Shown in pieces: positions 31,267 to 57,481 of a DNA stretch of 64,000 nucleotides. The DNA lies in NCBI GenBank assembly GCA_964596125.1, contig CAZQRP010000007.1, forward strand, positions 64,282 through 128,281, given 5' to 3'. The stretch comes from an uncultured Dehalococcoidales bacterium. GTDB taxonomy: Bacteria > Chloroflexota > Dehalococcoidia > GIF9 > UBA5629. The number at the start of each line of letters is the position of its first letter. The stretch's first letter is position 1. The notes below the pieces were generated by a model. The model worked only from the letters and a program-made list of their open reading frames with translations, was not told the DNA's origin and did not search any database. The translations under genes and the position numbers were made by a program.

Positions 31267-31290
31267 GTAAGCCTCCTTATACAATTTCGT

Positions 31291-34793: not shown

Positions 34794-34803
34794 TAAGTAA
34801 AGT

Positions 34804-34845
34804 AGAGAAGAGGCTGGTCTCCGGGATCAGCCTCTTCTCTGTTGA
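34804..34845 (+). terminator. stem-loop terminator candidate
   Basis: Perfect 13-bp stem AGAGAAGAGGCTG / CAGCCTCTTCTCT (34804-34816 / 34828-34840) just after the stop. The U-tract is weak. Confidence 0.5.
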
Positions 34846-38400: not shown

Positions 38401-39194
38401 ATCCGGCAACCGGCAGGAACCAGGAAGTCAACTTCACCTGGGAGCAGCTCTGCATTGCCGATTACTATGAACTCTATATCGGCAAGGATAACAGGTTCTC
38501 ACAGAGGATCTTCGCTGCTACGTTCTCACCAGCCAGTGTGATGTCGCCGGCTCTGATTTACTTCGCTGGCGGCGGTGGCACATACCCGGCCCTGTTCGAA
38601 ACATCTGGAGGAACAACCTTCCAGGTAACAGAGGGCAGGATTATGGCTCTTGATTGCGGACACGAGTTCTTCTGGAAAGTCAGGGTACGGGATGAGCGTA
38701 CCGATGATGCGGTACGAAGCCCGTGGTCTGAAGTGAGAAGCTTCCTTATCAAGGCCGGCTTCCGAGTAACCACACCGTACTATGGACCGCAGTTGCTAGC
38801 ACCGGATAACGGTTGTGGATGTCCTTGCGATGCCCCGCTATGCTTCTCATGGTCACCATTCAAGGAGACCACGACGTACAAGTTCGAGCTCTCCGAGAAT
38901 TCTGATATGAGCAGCCCGCTGGTATCGACAACGGTATCCAACGCTACTGCCTACCAGTACGATGGTACTGTGAAGTGCAATACCAACTACTTCTGGCGTG
39001 TGATGGCCGTAGAACCGGCACCGAGCGAGTGGAGCGCTGTATTCAGCTTCATGACGCAGGCTGAAGAAGTAGCACCTCCACCACCGGTGATTCCTGAAGA
39101 GGTAACCCCGCTATGGGTCTGGGTGATCATCGCTATAGGCGCAGTCCTGGTGATCGTTACCCTGGTACTCATCTTCAAGACACGCCGGGTGTAA
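35445..39194 (+). CDS. giant BNR/Asp-box repeat surface protein with C-terminal TM anchor (S-layer protein candidate)
   Basis: N-terminal signal/anchor (IAGIFAVLVLVASFLVPA). Asp-box motifs SIDGGRSW, SSDGGDNW and TRNNGETW. Two FN3-like modules (FFWKVRVRD..., NYFWRVMAVEPAPSEWS), a Pro-rich linker and a TM tail. AGGAGG lies upstream of the ATG. Confidence 0.8.
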   Translation: MKSKYSSIAGIFAVLVLVASFLVPAKLANPEPVEADPGLMEWTIVDTPDSEPALTKSLFTPWNLGSEVIKLLVGNNGNTMYALVRARRTPGATSAQAYIYLYKSIDGGRSWSSAKYNNLMASAGDGTPPAPRMIVWDITIAPDDPNIIAAAISDATNAPATGAVPMAQEVWISSDGGDNWDNTQWPPTGVSQGTDIISTMDISMDYGNGRDVLVGTRDGTGGGTNNISVMEMPGYGGWNVQDVTLGSPVSINPFTGDVIVAKFSPTYVGDSTIALVYSQPQGGAKPGTWLMTGVHDISVNRTTWQAAGMHIELRNASGTPGNSPMEDEIITADLELPSDFSGQSASLRRFYVCTDAINSTVATRGAVTAGIPHRGVYRVDDNVVYTLMDNSTLFATAAQNIPNRRAHSIAYWGTYASGKLLVGETLGHTCQAAVPVWFTDSPTVCPIPCWYPAKKPPTGAAGYNSCAEHWESWGNAWVVWSPTYADQGVAYAVTGSSKLDAAFNMPIAADFASANNNAVAGWPSGFGNVMLFDESAFSLTRNNGETWNQLSLIDTRMSKLTDVAPSPDCTTIYLASVNNETACLGFDSVWRSSINEAVVAPPLPALPIGQVWERVRTSPTNISCNMTDSNYAILRLAQDKLDGQVVFWAAGGTGIDTGTTTIGGFTVGPNTQALAWSPDYGDYWADINPRITVQDMAAESSTILYVLNRSGQVQKLPYTGTAWSSAINTVSAATGGGHTIEAQAEGKVLVGNRAAAPTPFPASISTNGAESFRPMVRPLQNLATFGYHAIFDTDYDDNETVYVANDSAAVGKIYRNKAPSGSNTDWSDMCNVFLGTTHREYYGIVQTNSKNVTGVGTLYAAHDAGSPNATAYCGVERTLNPLMGMPKPGMFWDCMDAADFFRGQTTVVEFTLEPKSLKLCGCLTQDTYTTLYAIDNDEYANNHNVYDNFGGVTLVRDRGMLWAYTDCMAKIGPTLTMDDGTIIGCDPATGRNQEVNFTWEQLCIADYYELYIGKDNRFSQRIFAATFSPASVMSPALIYFAGGGGTYPALFETSGGTTFQVTEGRIMALDCGHEFFWKVRVRDERTDDAVRSPWSEVRSFLIKAGFRVTTPYYGPQLLAPDNGCGCPCDAPLCFSWSPFKETTTYKFELSENSDMSSPLVSTTVSNATAYQYDGTVKCNTNYFWRVMAVEPAPSEWSAVFSFMTQAEEVAPPPPVIPEEVTPLWVWVIIAIGAVLVIVTLVLIFKTRRV

Positions 39195-39223
39195 ACTCAT
39201 CACTCGACAAGTGGTAATAAAAA

Positions 39224-39251
39224 GGGGGTGGCAATGAGCCACCCCCTTTTT
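39224..39251 (+). terminator. rho-independent terminator
   Basis: GGGGGTGGC-AATGA-GCCACCCCC followed by TTTTT. Confidence 0.85.
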
Positions 39252-39358
39252 ACATCATGAATAATTATGTAATTAGAACATAGTAATGGGTCTCCTCACT
39301 ATCCCCGCACAATGCAATAACGTCTAATCCTTTATCAGTTGCACTAAAAACCTTCCAG

Positions 39359-39387
39359 TTGACAGGCATCTTCAATATATTTATACT
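39359..39387 (+). promoter_or_regulatory. sigma70-like promoter (TTGACA-17-TATACT), distal
   Basis: TTGACA at 39359-39364 and TATACT at 39382-39387. Confidence 0.5.
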
Positions 39388-39395
39388 TGCAGACA

Positions 39396-39424
39396 TTGAC
39401 AGTTGAAAGCGTTCTATTTATACT
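39396..39424 (+). promoter_or_regulatory. sigma70-like promoter (TTGACA-17-TATACT), proximal
   Basis: TTGACA at 39396-39401 and TATACT at 39419-39424, 19 nt before ATG 39443. Confidence 0.5.
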
Positions 39425-39442
39425 GGTACAACAGGTGCTGAG

Positions 39443-40699
39443 ATGAAGAAAAACAAATGGTACTGGAGCTTGATTATAGTATCGCTTTTCATGCTGATCT
39501 GCATGACGGCAGGTTGTATCACCATCAGTGACAAGAAACCTGATGCGCGGAAAAAGCTCGCGGTGATGTCCGCACCGGTAATCAACTCATTTACAGTTGA
39601 CCGGGACACTATTACACAGGGAGAACAGGCAAAGCTAAGCTGGGATGTATCCGGGACAACAACAGTTACTATAAGTCCGGTTGTCGGCCCTATGGAGCCG
39701 GTCAGCACAGCGCTGGTAACACCAGAGACGACCATCACGTACACATTATCAGCTACCAACGAGGCGGGAACCAGCACTGCTACGGTACAAGTCAACGTCA
39801 CGCCGGTAGTTGTCGATAAGCCAGACCTGGTAATTACGGATGTCTGGATTGAGGTCAAGTCGATTTTTTATAAGATAAAGAACGAAGGAAGTGAGCCATC
39901 CAAGGGAAGCCGTTCATTCCTGTACGTAAATGATATAGTGGAGGACAATGACTATGTTCCCGCTCTGGCTCCCGGTGAGGAAAGGACTGAGTCTTTTGGC
40001 AGGTTCGTCTGGATTTACGGGTTCGCATCACAGACCAGTGCCATGACCATTACGGAAAAACCCCCTCAATTTACTGTTAAGGTCTGTGCAGATAGCGAGC
40101 ATGCCATCGTGGAACATGACGAAGGCAATAACTGTACCGAACTGGTCTGGGGACAGGAAGCTATCTATAGCTTTATTGACAACGCGCATTTCGCCGAGTG
40201 GACCAGTGGCTCTGGCAAGTTACGGTACCCATCACCAGCGGGCAGCCTGTCGGGGACGGCTTTAATAGCGAAGACCATGAACACGGAAGATGGCAAATCA
40301 CATTCCTCTGTCCTGGCGACATATCCACAGCAGGTCAGCAAGGGATGGATACAGGGTAGATTCGCTAATTTTTACATGGATCCAAAGAGCCGCACCCTGA
40401 GGAGCAAGGACATCCTCATACCAGCCAAGGCAAAATTTACTGCCGAGGTAGGTTTCAGAAAGGGTGCGACTGCCACTGCTGGTGTCCGGTTTATTCTTGG
40501 TGTTGCTGATGAGAGCGGCAGCGTAGTCTATTTCCCGGAAATATTCGCCACCTATGATGAGCAGTTTGACCTATATGAGGTAGATTTAAGCGAACTTGCC
40601 GGAGAGAAAAGGACTTTTATCCTGAGAGTTGAGGCTGAGGACTCAGGAGAGCAAAATTGGGCAGTATGGCTCGACCCCAGGATAATCCAGGAACGCTAG
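39443..40699 (+). CDS. secreted/lipoprotein-like protein with Ig-like and CARDB-like domains
   Basis: Signal peptide ending in ...CMTAGC (imperfect lipobox). The PDLVITDVWIEVKSIFYKIKNEGSEPS segment resembles the CARDB domain. Confidence 0.65.
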   Translation: MKKNKWYWSLIIVSLFMLICMTAGCITISDKKPDARKKLAVMSAPVINSFTVDRDTITQGEQAKLSWDVSGTTTVTISPVVGPMEPVSTALVTPETTITYTLSATNEAGTSTATVQVNVTPVVVDKPDLVITDVWIEVKSIFYKIKNEGSEPSKGSRSFLYVNDIVEDNDYVPALAPGEERTESFGRFVWIYGFASQTSAMTITEKPPQFTVKVCADSEHAIVEHDEGNNCTELVWGQEAIYSFIDNAHFAEWTSGSGKLRYPSPAGSLSGTALIAKTMNTEDGKSHSSVLATYPQQVSKGWIQGRFANFYMDPKSRTLRSKDILIPAKAKFTAEVGFRKGATATAGVRFILGVADESGSVVYFPEIFATYDEQFDLYEVDLSELAGEKRTFILRVEAEDSGEQNWAVWLDPRIIQER

Positions 40700-44873: not shown

Positions 44874-46673
44874 ATGAAAAAGGGAGCGTGCAGGTTCAAA
44901 GCCTCTGCGATAGTAGCAGGTCTATTGTTATTGGTTTTATGTCTTATACCAGCACCGGTTAACGCCGATATCCTCTCAATAAGCCCAATCCAGGGGATCG
45001 TTGGTACCGATGTCACCATTGGAGCACTAAGTGTCTATGGTACCGGCGAATTCTATATTTACTGGGGAGACGAGAAACAGGTTCTCAAGCATGGCACGGG
45101 AGATGAATCCGAATCGGTTACATTCAGTATTCCCGAAGCCGCCAGAGGAATACACAAGGTTATTCTTAAGATAGAGGGAAAAACGTTTGATGCCGAATTT
45201 ACGGTTATGCCCTCTATCAGCCTGGGTACTCACGAGGGTAAAGTAGGCTCAGAACTGATAGTTACCGGGAAAGGTTTCAATCAAAACGAGACAGATATCG
45301 AGATAACCTTTGATGGTAACACTATCGAAACCGGGATTAAAGCCGATAGCAATGGAAACTGGCAAAACGCTATCAAAATCCCTGACAGCCATTCGGGTGA
45401 GCATATTATAATTGCTTCAGGCACCACGCCCGCAGAAGAAGTAGGAAGCCAGACTTTTTCCATAGTTCCCAAAATCGATATTACTCCGAAGTCAGGCGGG
45501 GTAAATACTATGGTTACTATAAACGGTTCAGGTTTCGGCAATGCGGAAACTGGAATTGTAGTGACGTATGACGGGCTGGCGGTAAAAACAGCGATTGCCT
45601 CTACTAAACAAGGCTCATGGAAATCCAGTTTTTTCGTCCCGGCATCAACCAAGGGTAGCCATAAAATTGATGCCTACGGAGACACTACTGACAGTACTAC
45701 TGTAGCTGAGGTTACTTTTAACGTAGCTCCGTCTATAAAACTGGAAATGGTCTCAGGCCACCTCGGAGATACCATTCATACCGGCGATAGTTTTTGGGTC
45801 AGCGGTATTGGCTTCGAGGAGAATGAAACTGGAATTCAGGTTACATTCGACGGCATAATGCTGGCCAGCGGAATCACCGCTGATGCAAAAGGTACATGGG
45901 CAGTTCAACTGGAGGTGCCTCAAAGTACTCAGGGTGCACACACCGTCGACACGTCAGGAGAGACTACCAGTGCCAGCGATATCGCAAATGCCACGTTAAT
46001 AATCTCGCCGAAAATAGAAATAAATCCCACATCGGGAGCTATAAGTGAGGACGTTGTGGTAACCGGCACCGGATTCGGCGGGAGTCAGCCTCTGACTATC
46101 AGTTATGATGGCAACCAGGTAGCCACTGACTCGGCTACAGATTCTAAAGGCAGCTTCACAGTTAGCTTCGAAGTCCCTAAAAGCAAGGCTGGCGATCATA
46201 CTATCACCGTCGCCGATGCAATTGCATCTGTTGCCTCGGCAAGCTACAGCGTAGAGTCGACACCACCACCAACGCCCAGGCTTATCTCCCCTGAAGCCGG
46301 CAAAAGAAGCGGTTTCTTCGGTAAGACTATTATCACCTTTGAGTGGTCTGACGTGGATGATCCCAGCGGTGTCATCTATCTGCTGGAAATAAGCCAGAAT
46401 GTTGATTTTTCCGGTACCATGCTTCGTAAGGAGAACTTAAGCCAACCCCAGTACACGCTTACAGAAGAAGAGGCGATGAGTAAAGGTGAATATTATTGGA
46501 GGGTGAAAGCCATTGACGGTGCCAGCAACGAAGGTGAATGGACAACGGGGCAGCTTTTTAAAGTAGGAGTAATGGAACCATGGATGCTGGCAGTTATTAT
46601 CATAGCTGGCTTAGGTATACTCCTCTTCATCGGGCGAATCATCCAGGTCAGTCGGAGAGGCGGTTGGAAATAA
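44874..46673 (+). CDS. cell-surface protein: signal peptide + five Ig/IPT-like repeats + FN3-like domain + C-terminal TM anchor
   Basis: From ATG 44874 (MKKGACRFKASAIVAGLLLLVLCLIPAPVNA). It has five ~85-aa repeats, then YYWRVKAIDGASNEGEWT and a TM tail. Paralogue of 33597-34793. Confidence 0.8.
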   Translation: MKKGACRFKASAIVAGLLLLVLCLIPAPVNADILSISPIQGIVGTDVTIGALSVYGTGEFYIYWGDEKQVLKHGTGDESESVTFSIPEAARGIHKVILKIEGKTFDAEFTVMPSISLGTHEGKVGSELIVTGKGFNQNETDIEITFDGNTIETGIKADSNGNWQNAIKIPDSHSGEHIIIASGTTPAEEVGSQTFSIVPKIDITPKSGGVNTMVTINGSGFGNAETGIVVTYDGLAVKTAIASTKQGSWKSSFFVPASTKGSHKIDAYGDTTDSTTVAEVTFNVAPSIKLEMVSGHLGDTIHTGDSFWVSGIGFEENETGIQVTFDGIMLASGITADAKGTWAVQLEVPQSTQGAHTVDTSGETTSASDIANATLIISPKIEINPTSGAISEDVVVTGTGFGGSQPLTISYDGNQVATDSATDSKGSFTVSFEVPKSKAGDHTITVADAIASVASASYSVESTPPPTPRLISPEAGKRSGFFGKTIITFEWSDVDDPSGVIYLLEISQNVDFSGTMLRKENLSQPQYTLTEEEAMSKGEYYWRVKAIDGASNEGEWTTGQLFKVGVMEPWMLAVIIIAGLGILLFIGRIIQVSRRGGWK

Positions 46674-46690: not shown

Positions 46691-46720
46691 TTGACAAACG
46701 GGAAACCATAAATATATTAT
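46691..46720 (+). promoter_or_regulatory. sigma70-like promoter (TTGACA-18-TATTAT)
   Basis: TTGACA at 46691-46696 and TATTAT at 46715-46720, about 50 nt upstream of the tubulin-like gene. Confidence 0.45.
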
Positions 46721-46771: not shown

Positions 46772-47953
46772 ATGAAATTAATGGTTATAGGGCTAGGTCA
46801 ATGCGGTTCTCGAATTGCTGATGAATTTGTCCGGCTCGATAAGATGGCGCAAGCACAGCGACACACTAATATAATCACTGGTGCCTTTGCCGTCAATACA
46901 GACCAGGCTGACCTTACCGGCTTGTCTCATATAGGTTCTGATTACATGCATCGTATACTTATTGGTGGGCGCAGAACCTGGGGACACGGTGTCGGCAAGG
47001 TAAATGAGATGGGTGCTGAACTCGCTAGAGAAGACGGTGATAAGGTGATAGACGCCATTAGAACTGCACCCTACTTCTACCAGACTCATGCCTTCATGCT
47101 CTGTGCCGGCGCTGCCGGCGGTACCGGATCGGGAGCAATCTCGATAATAGCCCAGATGATAAAAGAGCGTTACCTGGGCAAACCAGTTTACGCCCTGGTC
47201 GTCCTACCATTCGAGCATGAAGAGGTAGCCGAGCTGAGAAGCGTCTACAACACAGCCGTTTGTCTCAAGTCCATTCATACCGTCGCCGACGGTATATTTT
47301 TAGCAGATAATCAACGTTATGTCAGAAAAGACGCCAGCATGGGCTCGAACCTGAATAGGATCAACAATCAGATTGTTGAACCTTTCTACGATTTACTGTG
47401 CGCTGGTGAGATTACCAAATATAAGCACGTTGGCGCCAAGACGCTGGATGCCGGTGATATAATTCAATCGATCGATGGCTGGACAGCTATAGGCGTTGGC
47501 AGGGCTCAAATACCGCGTGGGTTCCGCTTCCCCTGGGAACTGGCCAAAATTAGCTTCAGGGAAAAGAGCGGTGAAACGCTCAGAGCTATGCAAGCCATGG
47601 ATGCTTCCCTAAGCGAACTTTCCATTAGTTGCAGCCCCGAGGATGCCGGTAGAGCTTTGTACCTGCTGGCAGCTCCAGCCAAGGAAATGAGTATGGATAT
47701 TGCCAAGGGTCTGGGTGATTACCTGCGAGAACTGGCGGAGAATGCTGTCATCAGGGCGGGTGATTTCCCCAGAGAGAAAGGTGCAGTCGACGTTACCGTG
47801 ATGTTCTCTCAATTAGCCTTTGTCCAGAAAATTCGAGACTACTACGATAGAGCATCCGCATTTGCCAATACACAGAAGGACCGCTTAAGAGAAACGTCTG
47901 GAAGGCTGCGTGATATGGAGGACGCGGCCAAAGAGCTGCCGAGTTTGATTTAA
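46772..47953 (+). CDS. tubulin/FtsZ-superfamily GTPase (canonical motifs)
   Basis: MKLMVIGLGQCGSRIADEF (T1-loop-like GxGQxG) and the tubulin signature GGTGSG (nt 47117-47134), with a downstream FLADNQ. 393 aa. Confidence 0.75.
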   Translation: MKLMVIGLGQCGSRIADEFVRLDKMAQAQRHTNIITGAFAVNTDQADLTGLSHIGSDYMHRILIGGRRTWGHGVGKVNEMGAELAREDGDKVIDAIRTAPYFYQTHAFMLCAGAAGGTGSGAISIIAQMIKERYLGKPVYALVVLPFEHEEVAELRSVYNTAVCLKSIHTVADGIFLADNQRYVRKDASMGSNLNRINNQIVEPFYDLLCAGEITKYKHVGAKTLDAGDIIQSIDGWTAIGVGRAQIPRGFRFPWELAKISFREKSGETLRAMQAMDASLSELSISCSPEDAGRALYLLAAPAKEMSMDIAKGLGDYLRELAENAVIRAGDFPREKGAVDVTVMFSQLAFVQKIRDYYDRASAFANTQKDRLRETSGRLRDMEDAAKELPSLI

Positions 47954-47984
47954 AAACCTCGTACGCTATCCTGGTCATGTTAGT

Positions 47985-48022
47985 AACAAAGGGAGGGAAA
48001 TTCCTCCCTTTGTTTTTATTTT
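47985..48022 (+). terminator. rho-independent terminator between convergent genes
   Basis: AACAAAGGGAGG-GAAATT-CCTCCCTTTGTT followed by TTTATTTT. Confidence 0.85.
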
Positions 48023-48038
48023 GGTTCCATACTATCAG

Positions 48039-49412
48039 CTATGAATCGGCAGACTGACCGGTGGCTTTTCTGTGTACATACCTGTTAGCCGCATGAACAA
48101 CCAGAGCCAGGCTCATCAAATAATCATCGTGGCCGTCGGCGGGATCAACGAAGAAGTTCAGTGTTTGGTTGGGTCGGTATACACTTTTAGCTTTCTCCAG
48201 CTCATACATCAGTAGCCTGTATTCATCGGAGCCATCCTGCTTGTAGAGCTTCAGCCCTCCTGAATTAACAGCAGCTAGCAAGTCAAAACCTGCTTCAGAC
48301 TTTGTTTTTTGAGTAAATTTAAATGGAATGACTTTGCTGCCGAGAGTTCGCTTTAAAAATGAAGCTATCGGTTCGCCAACTCCAGTTGCATCGACGACAA
48401 TACGGCTGCAGCCCCAGACATTCTTTAGAATATCCACCATCTTATCGAGTAAAATCGGATGCTTCTGACCTACCCAGCAATAATGCTCCACAACCTTTAT
48501 CGATGGCTGTGTCAGTCCTGTCTGTGACATTTGAATAGCCTCCATCTCAGCAATAGTAACCACAGTGGCATCTCTACCAGGTCTTGTCAACATTTGTTCC
48601 TCGATCACCTCGGATTCACCGGCAAGGTCAATACCGGCAACATAGATTTTCGATGCTTGCTGACGTCTATGAGCTCTTGAATGTTTCCCAAGCAACTGCG
48701 CTATTTGTTGCTGGGACAGAAAGCCTCCTCCACCACGGATGGGTATCAGCGCGTACTGTGTTTTAAACAAGGGATGATTCTCGCCCAGACGTCCCAGTTC
48801 AGCCTTAACAAAGGCCCCGTATTCAGGATTGTATCTGGCCACTTGTTGCCAGTCATATCTGAAATGCCTTCTTATGCCGTCCTTTCTTTCCAGTTCAAGA
48901 TTAGTCTGCTTTATCTCCTCAAGCAGGGTACTGGTATCCCAGGTTGTCCCATAATGGACAGTAGTTACATTGGAAGCCGAACCCATAGGCCTGAACTCTT
49001 TAGTATATTTATCCTTGCTTACATCCTGAGACTCGTCTATCTCAAGCAAGATGTCAGCAGTATGTCCTACCACTGAAGACGACTCCTCGGCCGAAAGAAA
49101 GATCTGACGGGCTGATCCCAGCTTGACAATATAGCCCATCTCGGTCGACCATATACCAGAAAAACCGAAATCGTCAAGCCTTTCCTTTAGCCTCATCATT
49201 GATATTACCGTCTGCGGCTTGAAGGTCGGACTACATTTGATAGCGTTGCCACCCCTGGCCATAAACATCGTCAGCAAAAGGACTTCAAGCTGTGCTGACA
49301 GCTCATTTTTACCTCCCTGGCGGGCTATTTCTACAGAGAATGTTAAGCCTTTATTCTTCTGAATGCTCTGTAGAATGGCTTTAGCGACTTCTTGCTGGTA
49401 GGGTCTTAGCAT
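48039..49412 (-). CDS. phage terminase large subunit (TerL)-like protein
   Basis: 457 aa with an N-terminal ATPase (ARQGGKNE Walker-A-like, LLEIDE Walker B) and a C-terminal RNase-H-like nuclease (VAGIDLAG, VVDATGVG, GHDDYLMSLAL). Composition is host-like. Confidence 0.8.
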   Translation of the reverse strand: MLRPYQQEVAKAILQSIQKNKGLTFSVEIARQGGKNELSAQLEVLLLTMFMARGGNAIKCSPTFKPQTVISMMRLKERLDDFGFSGIWSTEMGYIVKLGSARQIFLSAEESSSVVGHTADILLEIDESQDVSKDKYTKEFRPMGSASNVTTVHYGTTWDTSTLLEEIKQTNLELERKDGIRRHFRYDWQQVARYNPEYGAFVKAELGRLGENHPLFKTQYALIPIRGGGGFLSQQQIAQLLGKHSRAHRRQQASKIYVAGIDLAGESEVIEEQMLTRPGRDATVVTIAEMEAIQMSQTGLTQPSIKVVEHYCWVGQKHPILLDKMVDILKNVWGCSRIVVDATGVGEPIASFLKRTLGSKVIPFKFTQKTKSEAGFDLLAAVNSGGLKLYKQDGSDEYRLLMYELEKAKSVYRPNQTLNFFVDPADGHDDYLMSLALVVHAANRYVHRKATGQSADS

Positions 49413-49738
49413 TACTTAACCAGTATCTTAACGCCCAGTGGTACAGCTATCTCGGTCAATACCCTGGTAATAGCTTCCTTAAGGGATTTCTTCTGCTCCT
49501 TGCTGATGTTGTAACGGATACCAACAAGCCTGGCAATGGTATTGGTAACCCTCAGGTGAAGGTCAAACCTTTCCGGCTCGCTCTCAATAAGCTCTCTGAG
49601 CTTAACGCGAAGTATGGCGATTTCTTCGTCCAAGCCTTCCACATCCCTGGCCTCTTCAAGGCCGAGCTTCTCGGCTTCATCAAGCGCCCGGCTGTAGAAT
49701 CCTCGTTTTCTGCTTTTTTGATTGTCTCTTTTTACCAT
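49412..49738 (-). CDS. small coiled-coil protein translationally coupled to TerL (small-terminase candidate)
   Basis: From ATG 49738, 108 aa with a basic N-terminus and helical repeats. Its TAA overlaps the TerL ATG by 1 nt. Confidence 0.45.
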   Translation of the reverse strand: MVKRDNQKSRKRGFYSRALDEAEKLGLEEARDVEGLDEEIAILRVKLRELIESEPERFDLHLRVTNTIARLVGIRYNISKEQKKSLKEAITRVLTEIAVPLGVKILVK

Positions 49739-50004
49739 CTTGTTTTGCCTTGATAAGCCCAAACACGAGAATATGGGCAGCCAGGTCATACTTCCGGTTA
49801 TCTAAAGCAACCTTCAAGAGCTTTACCATGATTAAATATTATAATAGTACAATTGTTCTATTATTACAAGCAATCAATGTCACCTATTCATTGAACAATT
49901 AGTAGTTTATTGTAACGCCATACATTTTATGATACAGTAACGTTAAGGACCTTTCACCAATCCCTTATTATCTTATTTACCATAGGAGGTCGACCACAGG
50001 TAAC

Positions 50005-51192
50005 ATGTCAGGCGTTCTGGAGATACGCCGTGCTAACGAATTCAGAGAATGCCCCCTTAATCAACCGGTAATCACCATCGGCCGCGGTGCTGATAATCAA
50101 GTTGTGCTGGATGATGAGCTTATATCACGCCATCACGCTAAGCTGGAGCAGGTAAAAAGTTCGCTCTATATAACCGACCTTGGCAGCAGCAACGGTACCA
50201 CCGTGAACAGCGTTAAAATCCAGCCGGTTGCACAGTTCGCTCTCAAAGAAGGTGCAGTTATCAGTATCGGTAGCTTCAAGTTAACTGTTCGTTTACTGCC
50301 TGCCACCAATAAAATACCGCCTTCTATGTTCCAGGTCGTTGAAGAGGGAACTGCAGCACCGGCCGAGAAAGCACCTCCCCCAGCTAGAGAGAGGGCTGCC
50401 GTCTATACTGAGGCCAGAGCAACAGCTCCTCCACAAGGTGGTAAATCCAAGCGGGGAACACTGTGGGCCCTTATAATCGGGATAATTACACTCGCAGTTA
50501 TTATAGCACTGTCGGTTACCCTTGTTTGCTCCGCTACAGTTGCAAAGGCGGATATCATAGCCGAGTTTATCGAGTCCCTGAAACAGATAAGCGAGGCAGC
50601 TACGGGCCAGATAGAAGCGGAGGTAGACAGTATAGACCAGGAGCTATTCAACACCGACGAGAAACTACTGAAGCTGGAGCAGGTAATCACTCCTGCGCTG
50701 GAGTGGGTTGAACGGCAAAAAGACAAGGCCAGGACCCAAGGTGCTTCATTCGTCTCCCAGGTAAATGCCGAAGGGCTGGACAAGCTCAAAAATGACCAGT
50801 ACCAGGTGACTACACTGGAAGGGAAAGGTAATACCAGTGGTCAGTTTACCCCTATTATCAGGGTTACCGATTTAACTACAAATACAACTCGTGACTGGGA
50901 AAAATTTGACAGCGAACTCAAGTTTCTAAGGTCCACCCTTAAGGAACAAAGACAGGAGAGATTAGCAGCCGGTATTTTGTCCGCTCAAACTCTGTTAGAA
51001 ATCATTAACTACTGGGAAGACTGGGATATAAAGAAGCTCAATGAGACGACCTACAGTATCAGTGGCCCCCACCTGGGATTGGCGGATGGGCCTGCCAAAG
51101 GTAAATGGACCTACTATAAACATACGGGAGAAAGCAAACCCACTGACAACGAGAGCGCAGCACTGAAGAAATTACTTGCAGCCGAATCCTGA
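50005..51192 (+). CDS. FHA-domain membrane protein
   Basis: N-terminal FHA (ITIGRGADNQVVLDDELISRHHAKL...ITDLGSSNGTTVN), a Pro/Ala linker, a TM helix (LWALIIGIITLAVIIALSVTLV), and an extracytoplasmic C-terminal domain. Confidence 0.8.
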   Translation: MSGVLEIRRANEFRECPLNQPVITIGRGADNQVVLDDELISRHHAKLEQVKSSLYITDLGSSNGTTVNSVKIQPVAQFALKEGAVISIGSFKLTVRLLPATNKIPPSMFQVVEEGTAAPAEKAPPPARERAAVYTEARATAPPQGGKSKRGTLWALIIGIITLAVIIALSVTLVCSATVAKADIIAEFIESLKQISEAATGQIEAEVDSIDQELFNTDEKLLKLEQVITPALEWVERQKDKARTQGASFVSQVNAEGLDKLKNDQYQVTTLEGKGNTSGQFTPIIRVTDLTTNTTRDWEKFDSELKFLRSTLKEQRQERLAAGILSAQTLLEIINYWEDWDIKKLNETTYSISGPHLGLADGPAKGKWTYYKHTGESKPTDNESAALKKLLAAES

Positions 51193-51649
51193 TTCCTAGG
51201 CAAGCTCTCGTGTCTACTACCTTCAGTAACGACCAAGGTATACACCCATCACCACAGCCACCACCAGAACCCCCACGACCAGCTTCTTCCCGAACTCGGT
51301 GAGGAAGCGCCTGTATTGGTATTGGGCTGCAGGCCATTACCGGTTGTAGGCGGTTTAGGAGGTTTAGATTGTTTATCCACTGCATCCTCAAGACCTTCGA
51401 TGTGGCCCCCGTCGCTTTATCCCGGAGTTTTATCCCAGTCTTGATGAGGTTCCTTGCTCCCTCCATACCCTCTTGCTGCTGCTGTTGAAGCCTGTCCAGG
51501 CGGTTGCCCGACTCTCTAGAAGTATCATGAAAAGCATCACAGGCACTATCCGCTTTTGAGCCTATATTATGCCGCCGATATATCAAGCATGGCAAAACCT
51601 GTCACAGAAATGTGGTAAGTAGCATCAGAGGGTCGAACATTAGCGAATA

Positions 51650-52294
51650 TCAGGCAGGTCTGAATAAAGAACTGAAGAAAGCGGCCACTCTCTCCGATGC
51701 AGTTGCCTCATGTCTGTACCAGAAATGGTCGGCTTTGGGGACAAGCTCAAACTGCTTCGGCTCCACCGATTCCCAGTATATCGACTCTACTTCTTCCGGC
51801 GAAACAAAGTAATCCTCGTCACCAACAACTATGAGCTTGGGCTTTAAGCAATTCCTGAAAGGTGACATTTGTAACGGCTCTGGAGGCGGTGAAATGAGCG
51901 CCATCGCCTTAACCCGTTCATCATCGCAGGCAACTGGTGAAGCTACCGCGGCGCCAAAAGAATAGCCCGCCAGCCCAACTTTACCCGTGTCAACTTCAGG
52001 TTGTGAAACAAGCCAGCTCAACGCCGCTGCTACATCCTCCCGCTCGGCAACACCGCCCCCATAATCACCCTCACTCCTGCCCACACCTCTAAAGTTAAAC
52101 ATAAACGCAATTATGGACTTATTTACCAGTGCCTCACTCAGCGCCAGGATCACATTGTTGTCCATGGACCCACCATACATAGGATGAGGATGGCACAGAA
52201 CTACTGCCGGGAAAGTCCCACCATCATCGGGATAATAACAGGAACCTTGCAGGCTAAGCTGGCCACAGGGGAATAGGACATCGCTTTCTCTCAT
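51650..52294 (-). CDS. alpha/beta hydrolase
   Basis: GYSFGA nucleophile elbow with a PHPMYGG region. ATG 52294 overlaps the rarA stop (ATGA), with GGAGG 8 nt upstream. Confidence 0.7.
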   Translation of the reverse strand: MRESDVLFPCGQLSLQGSCYYPDDGGTFPAVVLCHPHPMYGGSMDNNVILALSEALVNKSIIAFMFNFRGVGRSEGDYGGGVAEREDVAAALSWLVSQPEVDTGKVGLAGYSFGAAVASPVACDDERVKAMALISPPPEPLQMSPFRNCLKPKLIVVGDEDYFVSPEEVESIYWESVEPKQFELVPKADHFWYRHEATASERVAAFFSSLFRPA

Positions 52295-53661
52295 TCTTTC
52301 TTCCTCCGGTTGTTTAGCCACCAGGACTTGAGCCTGGTTTTTATTTCTTTCTCATAGCCCTGGTCGCCGGGAAAATAGTAATGCTTCCCCTGAAGTGAAG
52401 CTGGCAGATGTTGTTGCTTCACAAAATGATCCGGGTAGTCATGAGCGTATTTGTAATCCTTGCCATATCCAAGTCCGCGCATAAGACCGGTAACCGGATT
52501 ACGCAGATGAAGTGGTACCGGCTCATTTCGGCTCTGCTCAACATCCTGCTGTACCTTAGAATAAGCACGATACAATGAATTGCTCTTCGGGGCGGTAGCC
52601 AGGTAGACAACCGCCTGAGCCAGGGACAGGTTTCCCTCGGGCATACCTATAAAATGTACTGCCTGTTGAGCTGCTACGGCCACCGTTAACGCCCGAGGGT
52701 CAGCCATACCCACATCTTCGGAAGCGAAACGGACCAGGCGGCGGGCAATATAAAGAGGGTCTTCACCGGCTTCGAGCATCCGCCCCATCCAGTACAGGGC
52801 TGCATCGGGATCTGAACCACGCATTGATTTGTGCAGTGCCGATATAACATCATAATGCTGATCACCGTCTTTATCGTATAATAAAGACCGGTGCTGTAGC
52901 GCCTCTTCAATAGTTGCCAGGTTTGGTCGACGATATCCGTCTGCCTCAGGAAATGTCGCTTGAGTTGCCATTTCCAGGGAATTCAGTGCTGCCCGGGCAT
53001 CACCATTAGCTATAACAATCAAATGCTTTAGCGCATCTTCAGCTAACTCTACCTTATAGTTACCCAGCCCTCTTTCATCGTCCTGTATAGCACGCTCGAC
53101 TATGGAACGGATATCCTTATCAGTTAAAGAATTCAGGGTAAATACCCGGCACCTGGATAGAAGAGGGGAGATTACTTCAAACGAGGGATTCTCCGTAGTA
53201 GCACCGATGAGAGTTACTACTCCATTTTCTACAAATGGTAATATTGCGTCCTGTTGAGCCTTGTTAAACCTGTGTATCTCATCCGTAAACAGGATGGTTC
53301 GCTGCCCGGATCGCTTGAGCCTGCTTTTAGCTTCGTCAATGGCACGACGAAGGTCGCTTACACCAGCACTTACTGCACTCAGGGGGGTAAAATGTGACCT
53401 GGTAACATTGGCAATAACATAAGCCAGAGTAGTCTTGCCACTGCCAGGTGGGCCCCAAAATATCAGCGAAGGCAACCGGTCCAATTCGATACACTTTCTT
53501 AACACCCGTCCCTCGCCCACAAGATGCTCCTGCCCTATAAACTCGGTAAAGTTTCGTGGTCGCATTCTGGCTGCCAACGGTGTATCTTCCTGCAGCTCGG
53601 GGTAAACTTCGTCTTTCGGCCCGGCCTCTGGTTCCAGCCGATTTAAATCGAAAAGAGTCAT
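52291..53661 (-). CDS. rarA: replication-associated recombination protein A (AAA+ ATPase)
   Basis: GPPGSGKTTLA P-loop, FTDEIHRFNK Walker B, and a conserved MgsA C-terminal region. 456 aa. Confidence 0.9.
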   Translation of the reverse strand: MTLFDLNRLEPEAGPKDEVYPELQEDTPLAARMRPRNFTEFIGQEHLVGEGRVLRKCIELDRLPSLIFWGPPGSGKTTLAYVIANVTRSHFTPLSAVSAGVSDLRRAIDEAKSRLKRSGQRTILFTDEIHRFNKAQQDAILPFVENGVVTLIGATTENPSFEVISPLLSRCRVFTLNSLTDKDIRSIVERAIQDDERGLGNYKVELAEDALKHLIVIANGDARAALNSLEMATQATFPEADGYRRPNLATIEEALQHRSLLYDKDGDQHYDVISALHKSMRGSDPDAALYWMGRMLEAGEDPLYIARRLVRFASEDVGMADPRALTVAVAAQQAVHFIGMPEGNLSLAQAVVYLATAPKSNSLYRAYSKVQQDVEQSRNEPVPLHLRNPVTGLMRGLGYGKDYKYAHDYPDHFVKQQHLPASLQGKHYYFPGDQGYEKEIKTRLKSWWLNNRRKKE

Positions 53662-53662
53662 A

Positions 53663-54769
53663 TTATTTACTATCTCTACCCGATTTTAACGTCTGGGCCG
53701 AATCAACCGCCCTATCGTAATAACTCTTAACCGTTTCCACATACGTCAAACCAGAGAGAACCAGAGTAACCTGAGCACAATCTTTAGCCCCATAAAAATC
53801 ACCGCCCCTTATTTCAGCATTGTTGGTTAATTCTCGCAGGCGGTTCCCCAGCGTTTTAACCATGTCCACATTTGCTCCCTTAGCAGGGATAGAAAGAAGA
53901 TAGAGAGCTTTGCTGGCATCCTCTAATGCGAAGTCAATCGAGAGTCTCCCCAGAGCTGCATTCATAGCCTCAAGGGTTTTGGTTGTTTCCGAGCCTTTCT
54001 CCTGAAAGCTCTGTATCGGTTTCAGAAAAGACTTTGATACAGGAAATTCTGTTGTACCAACGCCTATCGCTGTCCAACCTGATAAAGTTTGCAGCATATC
54101 GCCAACGCCCAGGTTCCTGAATCCGGCATATTTCGGGCCAACCTCTTCACTGGCACAAAAAAGGTCATAGTAAGGAAAGACTATTTCCTTATTTATATCG
54201 CTCATATCTTCAATCGATGTAGCTTTTCTTTTGAATTTAAACTTCTCGTTATCAACCAGGAACACCGCATCCGCTATCTTATGAATGGACTTCAGGCAGA
54301 CTGCCGTATTATAAATACATTTGTGTTTGGCTGTTTCGGATTCAAAGGGAAGAACAATGAGTGCATAGATCGGTTTGCCTACATGGCGGTCTCTGAGTTG
54401 CTGAGCCAATATTGGGACTCCTCCGGAACCGAGGTTTCCGGCAGAACCAGCGACGAATAAAATGGCATCAGTATCATAATAATCGCTTGCCTCTACCACG
54501 GTTAAAACGCGGCCACCTTCTTCACGCATAAGCTCGGCACCAGCCTCAGCCAGTTTATCTGTATCTTCAAGAGAACGACCGATAGCAATAGTCCGCAGGT
54601 CCCTATGATCTGCTTTAATCGATTCGAGGCTAGCTTTATCGTTATTTACTGCATAAGCATTAGTAATTATTTGAACACGACGCTCAGCTTTCGCCCGTTT
54701 GTTTAACTCGGTGAATTCACCGGCTAATCTAGAACCACAATTATCAACACCAATAACTAATAGCTTCAT
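53663..54769 (-). CDS. tubulin/FtsZ-superfamily paralogue with degenerate nucleotide-binding motifs
   Basis: Clear paralogue of 46772-47953 (shared YNTAVCLKSIH, GWTAIGVG, YAL[IV]VLPFE). The motifs read GVDNCGSRL and AGNLGSG instead of GLGQCGSRI and GGTGSG. Confidence 0.7.
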   Translation of the reverse strand: MKLLVIGVDNCGSRLAGEFTELNKRAKAERRVQIITNAYAVNNDKASLESIKADHRDLRTIAIGRSLEDTDKLAEAGAELMREEGGRVLTVVEASDYYDTDAILFVAGSAGNLGSGGVPILAQQLRDRHVGKPIYALIVLPFESETAKHKCIYNTAVCLKSIHKIADAVFLVDNEKFKFKRKATSIEDMSDINKEIVFPYYDLFCASEEVGPKYAGFRNLGVGDMLQTLSGWTAIGVGTTEFPVSKSFLKPIQSFQEKGSETTKTLEAMNAALGRLSIDFALEDASKALYLLSIPAKGANVDMVKTLGNRLRELTNNAEIRGGDFYGAKDCAQVTLVLSGLTYVETVKSYYDRAVDSAQTLKSGRDSK

Positions 54770-54770: not shown

Positions 54771-55286
54771 TTATTTATATCTCCTTACTTGAAAACGGTA
54801 CAGGTTAATAGGTTCATCGGCTGATATGCCTGCTTTAGTCCGACAAACATTAATCTGCTGCTCTATAGTGTTCACGCCCTCAAGGTCAGGCAGTAACAAT
54901 CCCCGCTTGAAGCCATGCTCCACAATTAGGCCATATTTTTTGGGATCAAGCTGGTCGACAGTGCTCACCAGCTCTGGTGGGGTCAGGATATCTACGCTGT
55001 ACTCCAGTTCAGATAGCTCAGAAGCCTCGATCCGTTTGAAGCGCGGGTCACTGGTAGCCGAGCTTATTGCATTGGTAACGATCTCTGCAGCTACATTTTC
55101 CTCATTTGGTTCAAAGGTGCCTATGCAACCCCTCAATTGACCACGCTTTTTAATAGATACAAAGACGCCAGCTCTCTCTTTCATTTCGGTAGTAAGCTCC
55201 TCCGGTCTATGCACAATGCCTTTGCCGATATAATCTTCTACAGCGGCTTTGGCTAACCTGACTATAGGATTAGGCTGACGTTCCAT
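54771..55286 (-). CDS. AMMECR1-domain protein (AmmeMemoRadiSam system protein A type)
   Basis: LRGCIGTF and GLLLPDL motifs, 171 aa, adjacent to the partner genes. Confidence 0.85.
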
Positions 55287-55311
55287 TCACATATTCCCCA
55301 TTTAGCAAATC

Positions 55312-56118
55312 TCAAGGCACAACCTCAAAAGAAGCTACAAGATAGCCAACACCAAAAGGCCCCTCATAGGAAAGGACCTTTGGTTTCACCCTTAGCCCAT
55401 CCAGCGCGCCCAATAATATTACAACGGACCGTAAACCGCATTCTCCGGCCCTTTCAATAAGCTTTGCGTCCATGTTCAATATACTGTCTGTATCTGAACA
55501 GGATAACGCTTTTGCCAGCTTCTCGTCAAAGATTTTTCCCATCGGATCATAACCGGCTGGCGCCTCTGGAATAAGACGGTGAGAAAGGTCACCGCTGGCA
55601 ACCAGGACAACACGCTTTCCAATTTGCTCAGCCGCCCGTCTAATAGCTTGTCCAAAAGCGAAATGAGTTTTCAACGGAAGCCAGGAGAAGGTCAAAGGCA
55701 CAAGGGATACTCCTTCCATAGCACGATAGAAGAAGTGCATTGGTACCATTACTCCATGATCAAGTGAATAATTACTCCCACCGATAGACCTGATGGGAAC
55801 ACCATTTGCCTTTGCCTCTTTCTCTAAAAGTTCCACCATTTTCAGGTCATTATCAAACCGACGTTGAGGCCCCTGAGATCCCCATATTCTCATATCACCA
55901 GTTAACGAAGTGGCTGTAGATATCCCCATTGCGTCAGCGTGATATTCGCCATGAGGGCTGATAACCAACACTGTCTGCGGATGCTGCCGTCCCAGCATAT
56001 CAGTCAATTCTTCCATCGCCTTTATAGTTGCAGCTATTACATTCTCTTGACCTTTGCCAACGTCGGGAACTACTAATGGTGGGTGGGGTACAACACAGCC
56101 AAAAACGATACCTTCCAT
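55312..56118 (-). CDS. LigB/Memo-superfamily (class-III extradiol-dioxygenase-like) protein in the protein-B position of the AmmeMemoRadiSam triad
   Basis: GCVVPHPPLVVP, VLVISPHG, LDHGVMVPM, and SGDLSHRL. Lies between the AMMECR1 and radical SAM genes. Confidence 0.7.
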   Translation of the reverse strand: MEGIVFGCVVPHPPLVVPDVGKGQENVIAATIKAMEELTDMLGRQHPQTVLVISPHGEYHADAMGISTATSLTGDMRIWGSQGPQRRFDNDLKMVELLEKEAKANGVPIRSIGGSNYSLDHGVMVPMHFFYRAMEGVSLVPLTFSWLPLKTHFAFGQAIRRAAEQIGKRVVLVASGDLSHRLIPEAPAGYDPMGKIFDEKLAKALSCSDTDSILNMDAKLIERAGECGLRSVVILLGALDGLRVKPKVLSYEGPFGVGYLVASFEVVP

Positions 56119-56138
56119 ACACTACCTCCTCAATCGGG

Positions 56139-57167
56139 TTAACTGAGAGTCGTTCTCACATTAAGTTCGGCTCCACAGAACCTGCATTTCGAATTATCAA
56201 CTCCCATTATAGTAGCATTATAACCCAACCTCTGAATAACCATTTTCCCGCATGAATAGCAAACAGTGTTCTCTCTATCATGGCCGGGGACATTCCCTAA
56301 ATACACAAAGCGTAACCCTGCCTTTTTACCGATATCATATGCCCTCTCCAGGCTCGCTATAGGGGTCGACTGCAAATGCATCAGGTGATAATGGGGATGG
56401 AACCTGGTCACATGCCACGGTGTTAGCTCCCCCAGATTATCCCGAATCCAGACAGCAAGACCTTCCAATTGCTCTTCATCATCGTTCATTGACGGAATCA
56501 CGTTGGTAATCACCTCGACATGCATTCCCCACTTCTCTTGCGCCCGCTTGGCCACATCAAGGATGCCTCGCCAGCGGGGAATCCTGGCTAAATCCCGGTA
56601 TAATGCATCAGAAAAACCTTTGATATCAACTCTCCACGCATCAAGAAAGGGCCCAATCGTATCCAGTGCTTCTGGTGTAAGATAGCCGTTTGTTACGTAG
56701 ACAGTATAAAGCCCACTCTCTTTAGCCAGCTTCGCTGAGTCCAGCGTATACTCAAACCAGATACTGGGTTCGTTGTACGTCCAGGCAATACCATCGCAAT
56801 TACGCTGTTTGGTAATATTGACTTCTTCTTCGGGCTGAATATTTCGAACACTCCTCTGTATTTTGGCCGGCTCTTCGACACAGGAGATCTCCCAGTTCTG
56901 GCAATGTATACAGTGAAAGTTGCATCCCCACGTGCCTAAAGAAAATGCTAAAGTACCTGGGAAAAAGTGAAACAATGGTTTCTTTTCTATAGGATCAGCT
57001 GCTGCCGATGTGACTTCAGCATAATTAAGGACCTGAAGGACTCCTTCATCATTCCGACGCACTCGACAGACTCCATATTTGCCCGGTCCAATAACACAGC
57101 GCCACTGACAAACATTACAACGTACCCTGGAGTCAGGAAGTTTATCGTAAAGTATAGCCTCAGGCAT
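56139..57167 (-). CDS. AmmeMemoRadiSam-system radical SAM enzyme (PflA-like activase family)
   Basis: N-terminal Cys cluster RCNVCQWRCVIGPGKYGVCRVR, radical SAM CNFHCIHCQN (CX3CX2C), and a C-terminal CYSCG...CRFCG ribbon. Confidence 0.85.
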   Translation of the reverse strand: MPEAILYDKLPDSRVRCNVCQWRCVIGPGKYGVCRVRRNDEGVLQVLNYAEVTSAAADPIEKKPLFHFFPGTLAFSLGTWGCNFHCIHCQNWEISCVEEPAKIQRSVRNIQPEEEVNITKQRNCDGIAWTYNEPSIWFEYTLDSAKLAKESGLYTVYVTNGYLTPEALDTIGPFLDAWRVDIKGFSDALYRDLARIPRWRGILDVAKRAQEKWGMHVEVITNVIPSMNDDEEQLEGLAVWIRDNLGELTPWHVTRFHPHYHLMHLQSTPIASLERAYDIGKKAGLRFVYLGNVPGHDRENTVCYSCGKMVIQRLGYNATIMGVDNSKCRFCGAELNVRTTLS

Positions 57168-57481
57168 TGGTCAACCGCCTCCCCAACTAATTATATCACT
57201 TAAACCTTATCCATTATAAGTAAAGAGCTTCGAATTGTCACAATTAATCATTATAAGTATGTAAATTTCCCCGTATGTCCTGATAGGTGAGATGACGAAA
57301 TCTAATGACTATTTGCTAGACAATATTCAAAACATAGTTTAGAATAGCCACCAGCATAATCGAAAAGGCGACAAATCGCCCCAATGGTGCCTGAAGAAGG
57401 CTCCACTGAGTAATAGATAAAACCTACCCGGAGTCCGGGTCTATTGAAATTCATCAACTTTCAGGCAGGTAAAATGTAAAT

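Follow-up and report, generated by a model that had tools for sequence, protein, structure and literature searches.

What does a bacterium do with two tubulin-like proteins of which only one seems equipped to hold guanosine triphosphate (GTP)? This question is raised by a stretch of 64,000 nucleotides from an uncultured Dehalococcoidales bacterium (assembly GCA_964596125.1, contig CAZQRP010000007.1, positions 64,282 to 128,281), which we call the window. It carries two open reading frames (ORFs) that an earlier inspection of the DNA letters, here termed the sequence-only reading, had described as diverged paralogues of the tubulin/FtsZ superfamily. Gene A (46772-47953, plus strand) encodes 393 amino acids with intact GTP-binding motifs, and gene B (53663-54769, minus strand) encodes 368 amino acids with degenerate ones. 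We find that both proteins are CetZ-like and that B belongs to a conserved family of predicted pseudo-GTPases which lost one face of the polymer-forming fold. We propose that the T7 face of B contacts the GTP end of A, where B would act as a cap, a nucleator or a regulator, and we assign this proposal a probability of roughly 0.45-0.5.

A and B align over their full length with 46% identity (BLASTP, E 4e-112), and they are thus paralogues as the sequence-only reading had claimed. The sequence blocks quoted in its support were each found at the expected place. YNTAVCLKSIH occupies residues 159-169 in A and 153-163 in B, GWTAIGVG residues 236-243 and 231-238, respectively, and YAL[VI]VLPFE is common to both, while GLGQCGS, GGTGSG and FLADNQ occur in A, and GVDNCGS and AGNLGSG in B. 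A tblastn search of the 64-kb window revealed no third copy.

The family of both proteins was assigned with sequence profiles and structural models. The Tubulin/FtsZ GTPase domain PF00091 was detected with 108.7 bits in A and 69.3 bits in B (cut-off 33; Pfam cut-offs are gathering scores), and the domain CetZ_C (PF21011) with 58.9 and 37.3 bits (cut-off 21.6). Both proteins therefore fall inside the tubulin/FtsZ fold, in agreement with the superfamily membership proposed before. The nearest known systems are archaeal CetZ proteins of solved structure, namely CetZ1 (4B46) and CetZ2 (4B45) from Haloferax volcanii and a Methanosaeta CetZ (3ZID). In a phmmer search of the PDB sequences the best matches were CetZ1 (E 5.7e-43 for A and 6.7e-28 for B) and CetZ2 (E 5.3e-23 and 5e-18). 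FtsZ, gamma-tubulin and BtubA/B matched more weakly, from E ~1e-9 for the best FtsZ match of A to 1e-4, with B at E ~1e-4 against the FtsZ chains. The AlphaFold2 models of A (predicted local distance difference test, pLDDT, 85.2; predicted template modelling score, pTM, 0.85) and of B (pLDDT 87.2, pTM 0.89) both contain the two-domain fold composed of a Rossmann-like N-terminal domain, the core helix H7 and a C-terminal domain. When these models were compared with the PDB using Foldseek, CetZ1 and CetZ2 took the top ranks for both proteins. The template modelling (TM) scores, normalised to query and target, were 0.78 and 0.92 for A with CetZ1, 0.81 and 0.89 for B with CetZ2, and 0.80 and 0.89 for B with CetZ1; FtsZ came next with about 0.66 and 0.8. 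More than 1,100 matches reached E <= 0.001, and all 50 matches listed belong to the tubulin superfamily (CetZ, FtsZ, TubZ).

A and B are CetZ-like proteins and neither FtsZ, tubulin nor TubZ. An assignment as canonical FtsZ was rejected on TIGR00065 scores of 58.7 bits for A and 22.2 bits for B against an equivalog cut-off of 295.2, and on the absence of an ftsA or division and cell wall (dcw) gene context. TubZ/PhuZ or a phage origin was rejected likewise, with PF13809 at 12.5 bits (cut-off 27) and a chromosomal synteny kept across 80 loci. The suggestion that these are elements of an undescribed type had to be given up, since CetZ_C, sequence and fold all identify them as CetZ-like and since CetZ-like sequences of Chloroflexota-Dehalococcoidia were mentioned in passing in 2023 (PMC9871819). 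The accessible part of that survey offers no functional or paralogue analysis and mentions no GTP-dead paralogue; A is an uncharacterised bacterial protein of the kind already seen there. As far as we found, a conserved GTP-dead paralogue with asymmetric loss of one polymer face is undescribed.

The host is bacterial. The window encodes a bacterial Rho factor, cytidine triphosphate synthase (PyrG) and other bacterial housekeeping proteins, and all named relatives of A and B come from Dehalococcoidia or Chloroflexota assemblies. CetZ was described as archaea-specific by Brown and Duggin (PMC9856176), and the archaeal host typical of this family is therefore not found here. Members of the order Dehalococcoidales reportedly keep mraZ-mraW-ftsA-ftsZ, while the rest of the dcw cluster and the peptidoglycan genes are absent (PMC10608941), which fits the wall-less, Dehalococcoidia-like cell that the sequence-only reading had surmised. 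In Dehalococcoides mccartyi 195 the ftsA-ftsZ pair is DET0342/0343, and two more genes, DET0589 and DET0636, are annotated as 'FtsZ' (PMC5102406). Because this order and this strain are reported with ftsA-ftsZ, A and B are most likely additions to a canonical FtsZ whose gene lies outside the window.

A phmmer search against 1.84 billion cluster representatives recovered 936 clusters at E <= 1e-3, 69 of them at E <= 1e-30. From 85 full-length sequences (representatives, chosen A- and B-type homologues, and A and B of the window) a neighbor-joining (NJ) tree with 200 bootstraps was calculated, which CetZ1 and CetZ2 entered via their PDB-search alignments. It is an unrooted distance tree with no FtsZ outgroup, in which most representatives carry no taxon label. 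The B type is monophyletic with a bootstrap of 1.00, and the A core clade has a bootstrap of 0.82. A, B and 34 intermediate 'GxGQCG' sequences, which are mostly metagenome proteins and Dehalococcoidia where named, form a clan of 36 sequences that is split from the group containing CetZ1 and CetZ2 with a bootstrap of 0.99 in this unrooted tree. The clan does not lie within the canonical euryarchaeal CetZ clade, and being apart from the CetZ1/CetZ2 group its members are therefore named 'CetZ-like', as in PMC9871819. This clan and its clade structure indicate that B arose within the bacterial type.

Some further members of the family deserve mention. Four clusters of the 'GxGQCG' clan (P0250, P0251, P0255 and P0257) have a degenerate T3 loop and an intact GGTGSG signature, which suggests more partly degenerate paralogue classes besides B. 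Some genomes appear to contain two A-type genes: locus L049 has two copies with 80-81% identity on one contig, and one metagenome-assembled genome (CAZAIO01; loci L001 and L059) has two A-type loci with 93% and 78% identity. These may be either true extra paralogues or mixed bins. An A-type locus with 72% identity (L065) occurs in a metagenome-assembled genome labelled Thiorhodovibrio (Gammaproteobacteria), where the usual synteny is absent; it is probably a mis-binned contig, the alternative being horizontal transfer.

The contrast of intact and degenerate GTP motifs seen in the window holds throughout both clades, as counted in 120 A-type and 119 B-type cluster representatives. The nucleotide loops of A are all intact. 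Its T1 loop (GLGQCGS, residues 7-13; 46790-46810, plus strand) contains Gln10, which is present in 120/120 A-type sequences. The T3 loop, the gamma-phosphate sensor (GHGVGKVN, residues 71-78; 46982-47005, plus strand), aligns with GHGVGADN of CetZ1 and is near invariant in the A clade. The T4 loop (GAAGGTGSG, residues 113-121; 47108-47134, plus strand) carries the tubulin signature [SAG]-G-G-T-G-[SA]-G in the form AGGTGSG, and GGTGSG is found in 119-120 of the 120 A-type representatives. The trans-acting catalytic T7 loop (LDAGD, residues 225-229; 47444-47458, plus strand) aligns with VDSSE of CetZ1 and has both Asp residues in all 120 cases. Altogether, the A-type residues of T1, T3, T4, T6 and T7 are invariant in 119-120 of 120.

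In B the same loops are altered in a consistent manner. The T1 loop reads GVDNCGS (residues 7-13; 54731-54751, minus strand); the Gln is replaced in 119/119 B-type sequences (Asp in 91, Asn in 19, Lys in 6), and the GVDNCG of the window is a minority variant among them. Of T3 only the remnant GRSLEDTDKLA (residues 64-74; 54548-54580, minus strand) is left, which has no glycines and lacks three residues at the place of GHGVGK in A. The gap also appears in the alignment of B with CetZ1, and the GHGVG columns, invariant in the A type, are gapped in 114-118 of the 119 B-type sequences. The T4 loop (GSAGNLGSG, residues 108-116; 54422-54448, minus strand) fails the tubulin signature with AGNLGSG. 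Its second Gly is present in 119/120 A-type and 0/119 B-type sequences, and the Thr found in 120/120 A-type sequences is replaced in every B-type sequence, always by a hydrophobic residue (Leu 48, Phe 43, Ile 16, Val 12). A T3 deletion together with a broken signature occurs only in the B type among the 85 full-length sequences, 81 of which have usable T3/T4 columns. Since T3 is deleted, a hydrophobic residue occupies the T4 Thr position and T1 carries Asp or Asn, B has very probably lost triphosphate binding. B keeps the T5 Glu and the T6 Asp-Asn, which are ribose and base contacts in its relatives (T6 Asn in 111/119 B-type and 120/120 A-type sequences).

The T7 loop of B (LGVGD, residues 220-224; 54098-54112, minus strand) has lost its first Asp and kept the second, the catalytic equivalent. 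The first position is Gly in 91, Asp in 24 and Ser in 4 B-type sequences, and the second is Asp in 116 and Glu in 3, so that it is acidic in 119/119. In the alignment with CetZ1 this second Asp is matched to the Glu of the loop VDSSE, and we take it to be the equivalent of D212 in FtsZ and E254 in alpha-tubulin. By its motif states in T1, T3 and T4 the second copy does not retain all GTP-contact residues. The missing T3 loop, the Gly in place of the first T7 Asp and the different C-terminal tails of A and B go beyond what the sequence-only reading had described.

Rates of evolution were compared in 18 genomes with A and B on one locus (153 genome pairs). At the amino-acid level the median pairwise identity of A was 85%, that of B 58%. 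The nonsynonymous rate (dN) of B was 3.3 times that of A, and B was the faster protein in 153/153 pairs. In the 21 pairs with unsaturated synonymous rates (dS) the median dN/dS was 0.039 for A and 0.122 for B. By these measures B is under selection and functional, though held less tightly than A, and the loosening is confined to certain segments. According to per-block entropies the high variability of B falls in residues 41-80 (T2/T3), 141-150 (T5) and 171-200 (T6 and the beginning of H7), segments that hardly vary in A, as well as in 241-260 and the tail. At T7/H8 (221-240) and in the C-terminal domain (261-340) the conservation of B is about that of A. In polymers of this superfamily the nucleotide loops form the 'top' face of a subunit, and T7/H8 together with the C-terminal domain form the 'bottom' face, which enters the pocket of the next subunit. 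The variable nucleotide loops and the conserved T7/H8 and C-terminal domain therefore indicate that B kept the bottom polymer face and released the top face.

The C-terminal tails differ as well. In the model of A a long helix (residues 352-387) is followed by the terminal peptide LPSLI; the end of the helix and the peptide (RLRDMEDAAKELPSLI) are encoded at 47903-47950 on the plus strand. The motif LPxL[ILM]-COOH is present in 111/120 A-type and 0/119 B-type sequences. Because similar D-[IL]-P-x-L-[LIF] peptides terminate many representatives, some of them nearer to CetZ1/CetZ2 than to A, the A-type peptide looks ancestral and was apparently lost in B. The tails of the B type are variable, that of B in the window being short, and polybasic tails, defined as at least four Lys or Arg in the last 12 residues, occur in 50/119 B-type and 0/120 A-type sequences.

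The genes for A and B are 5.7 kb apart on opposite strands and belong to separate transcription units. They share a contig in at least 18 genomes, plus loci L056 and L081. A promoter-like site for A (TTGACA, a 16-18 nt spacer and TATATT/TATTAT; 46691-46720, plus strand), which is a consensus match only (11/12), sits in the 98-bp spacer upstream of A. A terminator-like hairpin with a 13-bp stem and a following T run lies 32 nt past the stop codon (47985-48014, plus strand). With its own promoter-like site and terminator A is probably monocistronic. The gene on the other side of the 98-bp spacer (44874-46673, plus strand) encodes a single-pass surface protein of ~599 amino acids when started at ATG 44874. 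It matches Pfam TIG and an NCBIfam PGS Ig-like domain and consists of a signal-like N-terminus, IPT/TIG and Ig-like repeats, a C-terminal transmembrane helix and the cytoplasmic tail SRRGGWK. The position of A directly downstream of a surface-protein gene, already pointed out from the sequence, is conserved in relatives: of the 75 related loci whose flanking sequence suffices, ~68 by a manual count have a TIG protein immediately upstream of A. The tail behind the transmembrane helix (region 46560-46673) has 8-15 residues with a recurring [RK][RK]GG[WY] motif (SRRGGWK, SKKGGWSSS, RRGGGYD), which is kept although the extracellular parts of these relatives are only 31-62% identical (L001-L080). 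This motif may serve as a docking site. The order PyrG, Fsa, Rho, TIG protein, A and the convergent pair orf457/orf125 is maintained, as far as the flanks reach, in 80 species-representative loci with an A-type identity of 60-93%.

B is embedded in an operon of a different kind, which has the order radical S-adenosylmethionine (SAM) gene, LigB/Memo-like gene, AMMECR1 gene, B, RarA gene and hydrolase gene. The three genes upstream of B form an AmmeMemoRadiSam block (54771-57167, minus strand), each scoring above the cut-off of its model: the radical SAM gene at 56139-57167 (TIGR04337), the LigB/Memo-like gene at 55312-56118 (TIGR04336) and the AMMECR1 gene at 54771-55286 (TIGR04335). Downstream of B follow the AAA+ ATPase RarA/MgsA (52291-53661, minus strand; Pfam MgsA_C 247.7 bits) and an alpha/beta hydrolase (51650-52321, minus strand). 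Spacers of one nucleotide separate the AMMECR1 stop codon from the start of B and the stop codon of B from the start of RarA. The candidate promoter of the operon lies ahead of the radical SAM gene (57213-57241, minus strand); this promoter-like site matches the consensus in 11/12 positions and is a consensus match only. This gene order is kept around B-type genes at 50-66% identity, even where no A gene lies within 8 kb. In a Dehalococcoidales clade with 60-62% A-type identity (L077, L078) RarA adjoins AMMECR1 with no B in between, so the operon would predate B or be able to lose it; B either entered an operon that already existed or dropped out of it. The same uninterrupted run of radical SAM, AMMECR1 and RarA genes, lacking a B-type gene, is also seen in L071 and L079 of this clade.

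On this basis we propose the following mechanism. A would be a conventional GTP-dependent filament former that assembles head to tail. B would be a conserved pseudo-GTPase that holds no triphosphate, with a drifted top face and an intact bottom face. The partner of B should be GTP-bound, because a conserved trans-acting T7 residue in a protein without a pocket of its own is useful only in the pocket of another subunit, and A is favoured as this partner because it is the sole other CetZ-like protein that tblastn found in the window. With its bottom face B would bind where an A subunit or protofilament exposes its GTP, and it would complete that active site. As the top face of B is no longer a conserved interface, no further subunit could add there, and B would terminate or nucleate the filament as an end cap, a nucleator or a length regulator. 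In the many B lineages with a polybasic tail this tail could hold the filament end at the membrane.

By analogy, A is most likely a cell-shape or envelope-organising element like archaeal CetZ. It may be coupled to the neighbouring single-pass surface protein, and its C-terminal peptide may serve for docking to a partner. The cell-shape role is suggested by the analogy with CetZ1 and by a lead from D. mccartyi BTF08. Archaeal CetZ1 controls the change from discs to rods, as stated in the accessible part of PMC13556191. In strain BTF08 two proteins, btf_0551 (called 'tubulin/GTPase') and btf_0595 (an additional 'FtsZ'), were less abundant in co-cultures with barrel-shaped cells than in those with disc-shaped cells (PMC8163811); they may correspond to the A type and the B type. 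A and B share with archaeal CetZ the two-domain fold (TM scores 0.78-0.92), the CetZ_C domain and, most likely, an existence alongside FtsZ and not in its place. A further resembles it in a GQxG-type T1, GHGVG in T3, GGTGSG in T4, the acidic T7 pair aligned with VDSSE, and the short hydrophobic C-terminal peptide that ends many CetZ-type representatives. In CetZ1 the mutation E218A of the T7-loop Glu stabilises the filaments. Unlike archaeal CetZ, A and B have a bacterial host and form a separate clan with 27-30% identity to CetZ1/CetZ2; A has GQCG in place of GQAG in T1 and lies beside a surface protein, and B lies in an AmmeMemoRadiSam-RarA context.

Several observations weigh against the docking of B on A. 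The T5 Glu and the T6 Asp-Asn mean that B might still bind some nucleotide or nucleoside, and the Gly at the first T7 Asp in most B-type sequences might mean that catalysis is weakened and not preserved. The A core clade and B group with a bootstrap of 0.29, so that the NJ tree does not settle the sister group of B. By their regulatory sites and operons A and B are evidently not co-transcribed, and AmmeMemoRadiSam and RarA as operon partners suggest no cytoskeletal role. Judged from the 60-62% clade, A can apparently work where B is missing from the operon, although B may lie elsewhere in those genomes. No match named D. mccartyi appeared in the homology search, so that DET0589/DET0636 and btf_0551/btf_0595 are at most candidates for A and B, and the literature on these locus tags added nothing to the identification. 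Finally, the canonical FtsZ of the genome could take the place of A as the partner of B, which we regard as very improbable for the reasons given below.

An obligate alternating heteropolymer of A and B resembling alpha/beta-tubulin or BtubA/B, the analogy drawn by the sequence-only reading, seems unlikely. Here the T7 loop of B would meet the GTP of A, and the top of B would form a stable nucleotide-free interface with the T7 face of A. The pairing of an intact with a degenerate protein and the co-occurrence of both on contigs would be expected of such a polymer, as would the conserved T7 face of B and shared blocks like GWTAIGVG behind T7. A and B also resemble the heterodimers in being two diverged paralogues, one with an altered catalytic or nucleotide site, and A has GQCG and DN motifs. 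Yet a permanent interface is not expected at the top face of B, where conservation within the protein is lowest, and the separate transcription units give no sign of stoichiometric co-expression. Nor does a heteropolymer agree well with a B that evolves 3.3 times faster than A, or with A-type loci that have no B at the usual site. Both subunits of alpha/beta-tubulin bind GTP, the non-catalytic change being in T7 (Lys in beta for Glu in alpha), and the btubA and btubB genes are adjacent and their products likewise both bind GTP. B almost certainly does not, and a nucleotide pocket in both subunits is not found here, as B has neither T3 nor the T4 Gly-Thr nor the T1 Gln. In contrast to the tubulin heterodimers, the pocket of B is destroyed and the main acidic T7 residue kept, and in contrast to BtubA/B the two genes are non-adjacent. 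The sequence similarity of A and B to tubulin and BtubA/B is marginal (E 1e-4 to 1e-6). The degenerate pocket, the separate transcription units and the poorly conserved nucleotide face leave the analogy weak and agree better with a cap or one-sided partner than with an alternating lattice of heterodimers.

It is quite unlikely that B has been repurposed as a scaffold outside the cytoskeleton, which would work independently of A, for example by serving the AmmeMemoRadiSam proteins as substrate or partner or by assisting RarA at replication forks, and would bind DNA or membrane through its polybasic tail. The location of B between AMMECR1 and RarA with one-nucleotide spacers, conserved down to ~50% identity and also where no A is nearby, speaks in favour of this idea, as do the 50/119 polybasic tails and the loss of the C-terminal peptide of A. 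The radical SAM-AMMECR1-RarA block of L077 and L078 nevertheless shows that the operon needs no B, and the conservation of the acidic T7 residue and of GWTAIG is hard to explain without a nucleotide-bound partner of the tubulin fold. In their accessible parts, the papers that name the AmmeMemoRadiSam system give neither a function nor a cytoskeletal link from which a role for B could be derived.

A third explanation, very unlikely in our view, is that B acts on canonical FtsZ as a degenerate inhibitor or positioner of the division ring. The plant chloroplast protein ARC3 has an FtsZ-like domain without GTP motifs, is fused to MORN repeats and inhibits FtsZ assembly. Like B it is a degenerate member of the fold retained beside active paralogues, and it regulates assembly and forms no polymer of its own. 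ARC3 differs in being eukaryotic and MORN-fused; B is full-length, CetZ-like and not fused to another domain, and its part in regulation is one that we infer. The T7 face of B could in principle dock on any GTP-bound protein of the tubulin fold, B is co-transcribed with a replication-associated gene, and Dehalococcoidales keep ftsA-ftsZ (PMC10608941). Against an FtsZ target stands the similarity of B to A, with 46% identity, while that to FtsZ is marginal (E ~1e-4; 22 bits with the ftsZ model), and the interface residues of B should therefore be A-like and not FtsZ-like.

That B is a decaying, functionless duplicate could be argued from its degenerate GTP motifs and faster evolution, but this explanation is effectively refuted by a dN/dS of ~0.12 and the clade-specific conserved motif replacements, such as the hydrophobic residue always found at the Thr position, and is further contradicted by an intact ORF in more than 100 cluster representatives, the monophyly, the confidently predicted fold and the conserved operon position.

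Canonical FtsZ is also instructive for A. Both belong to the same superfamily, T7 of A has the FtsZ-like DxxD spacing, and the C-terminal peptide of A behind its linker helix resembles the FtsZ C-terminal peptide, which docks on FtsA, SepF or ZipA. The genomic neighbours differ from those of FtsZ, since A lies near PyrG, Fsa, Rho and the TIG protein and B among the AmmeMemoRadiSam genes and RarA, and a separate ftsA-ftsZ pair is reported in Dehalococcoidales (PMC10608941, PMC5102406).

Taken together, wall-less Dehalococcoidia, which are disc-shaped in culture, might use a CetZ-type cytoskeleton in which filaments of A are tied to an Ig-like surface protein and their ends are capped or nucleated by the GTP-dead B. 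This whole picture is tentative and, with all its parts, rather improbable. If true, Bacteria would gain their first cell-shape system based on CetZ, and B would be the first described case in the prokaryotic tubulin superfamily of a natural pseudo-GTPase that regulates filament ends. CetZ counts as a third, archaea-specific branch of this superfamily, and in Haloferax it is linked to the change from discs to rods. With its size and strong conservation, the CetZ-like family of this bacterial class, which has lost peptidoglycan, would be a candidate for a wall-independent shape system, and it would offer a clean case of cytoskeletal parts shared across domains. B may be regarded as a natural experiment in which the pocket and the top face were discarded and the trans-acting catalytic face was kept, the design expected of a filament cap. 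Engineered FtsZ mutants with one functional face act as cappers, and we know of no natural prokaryotic counterpart. Dehalococcoides can be cultivated and is relevant to bioremediation, so the predictions are directly testable.

Several other features of the window were recorded. The pair orf457 and orf125 (48039-49789, minus strand), convergent to A and present with 51-81% identity in most Dehalococcoidia loci examined, has no Pfam or NCBIfam match and shows weak PHROG matches to the terminase large (E 0.0025) and small (E 0.001) subunits. It may be a domesticated terminase-like pair, situated 16 kb from a prophage-like island. This island (22000-33000), a prophage or phage-like element, has a guanine-plus-cytosine fraction of 0.54-0.62 compared with ~0.46 elsewhere in the window and bears on its minus strand genes for phage structural proteins, namely an SU10-type adaptor (26834-27427), a major capsid protein (29776-30699) and an SPP1-type portal protein (31339-32751). 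The ten island ORFs scanned between 22955 and 40699 gave no recognisable terminase, and an Rfam scan of the window gave no matches. An FHA-domain protein that has a hydrophobic segment in its middle is encoded between A and B (50005-51192, plus strand); its position is not conserved in relatives, and weak matches to it were found in only L019 and L056. Just upstream of PyrG, within 33597-40699 on the plus strand, three more putative surface proteins are encoded: a TIG/Big-domain protein (33597-34793), a 1249-amino-acid ORF with no Pfam match (35445-39194) and a CARDB-domain protein (39443-40699).

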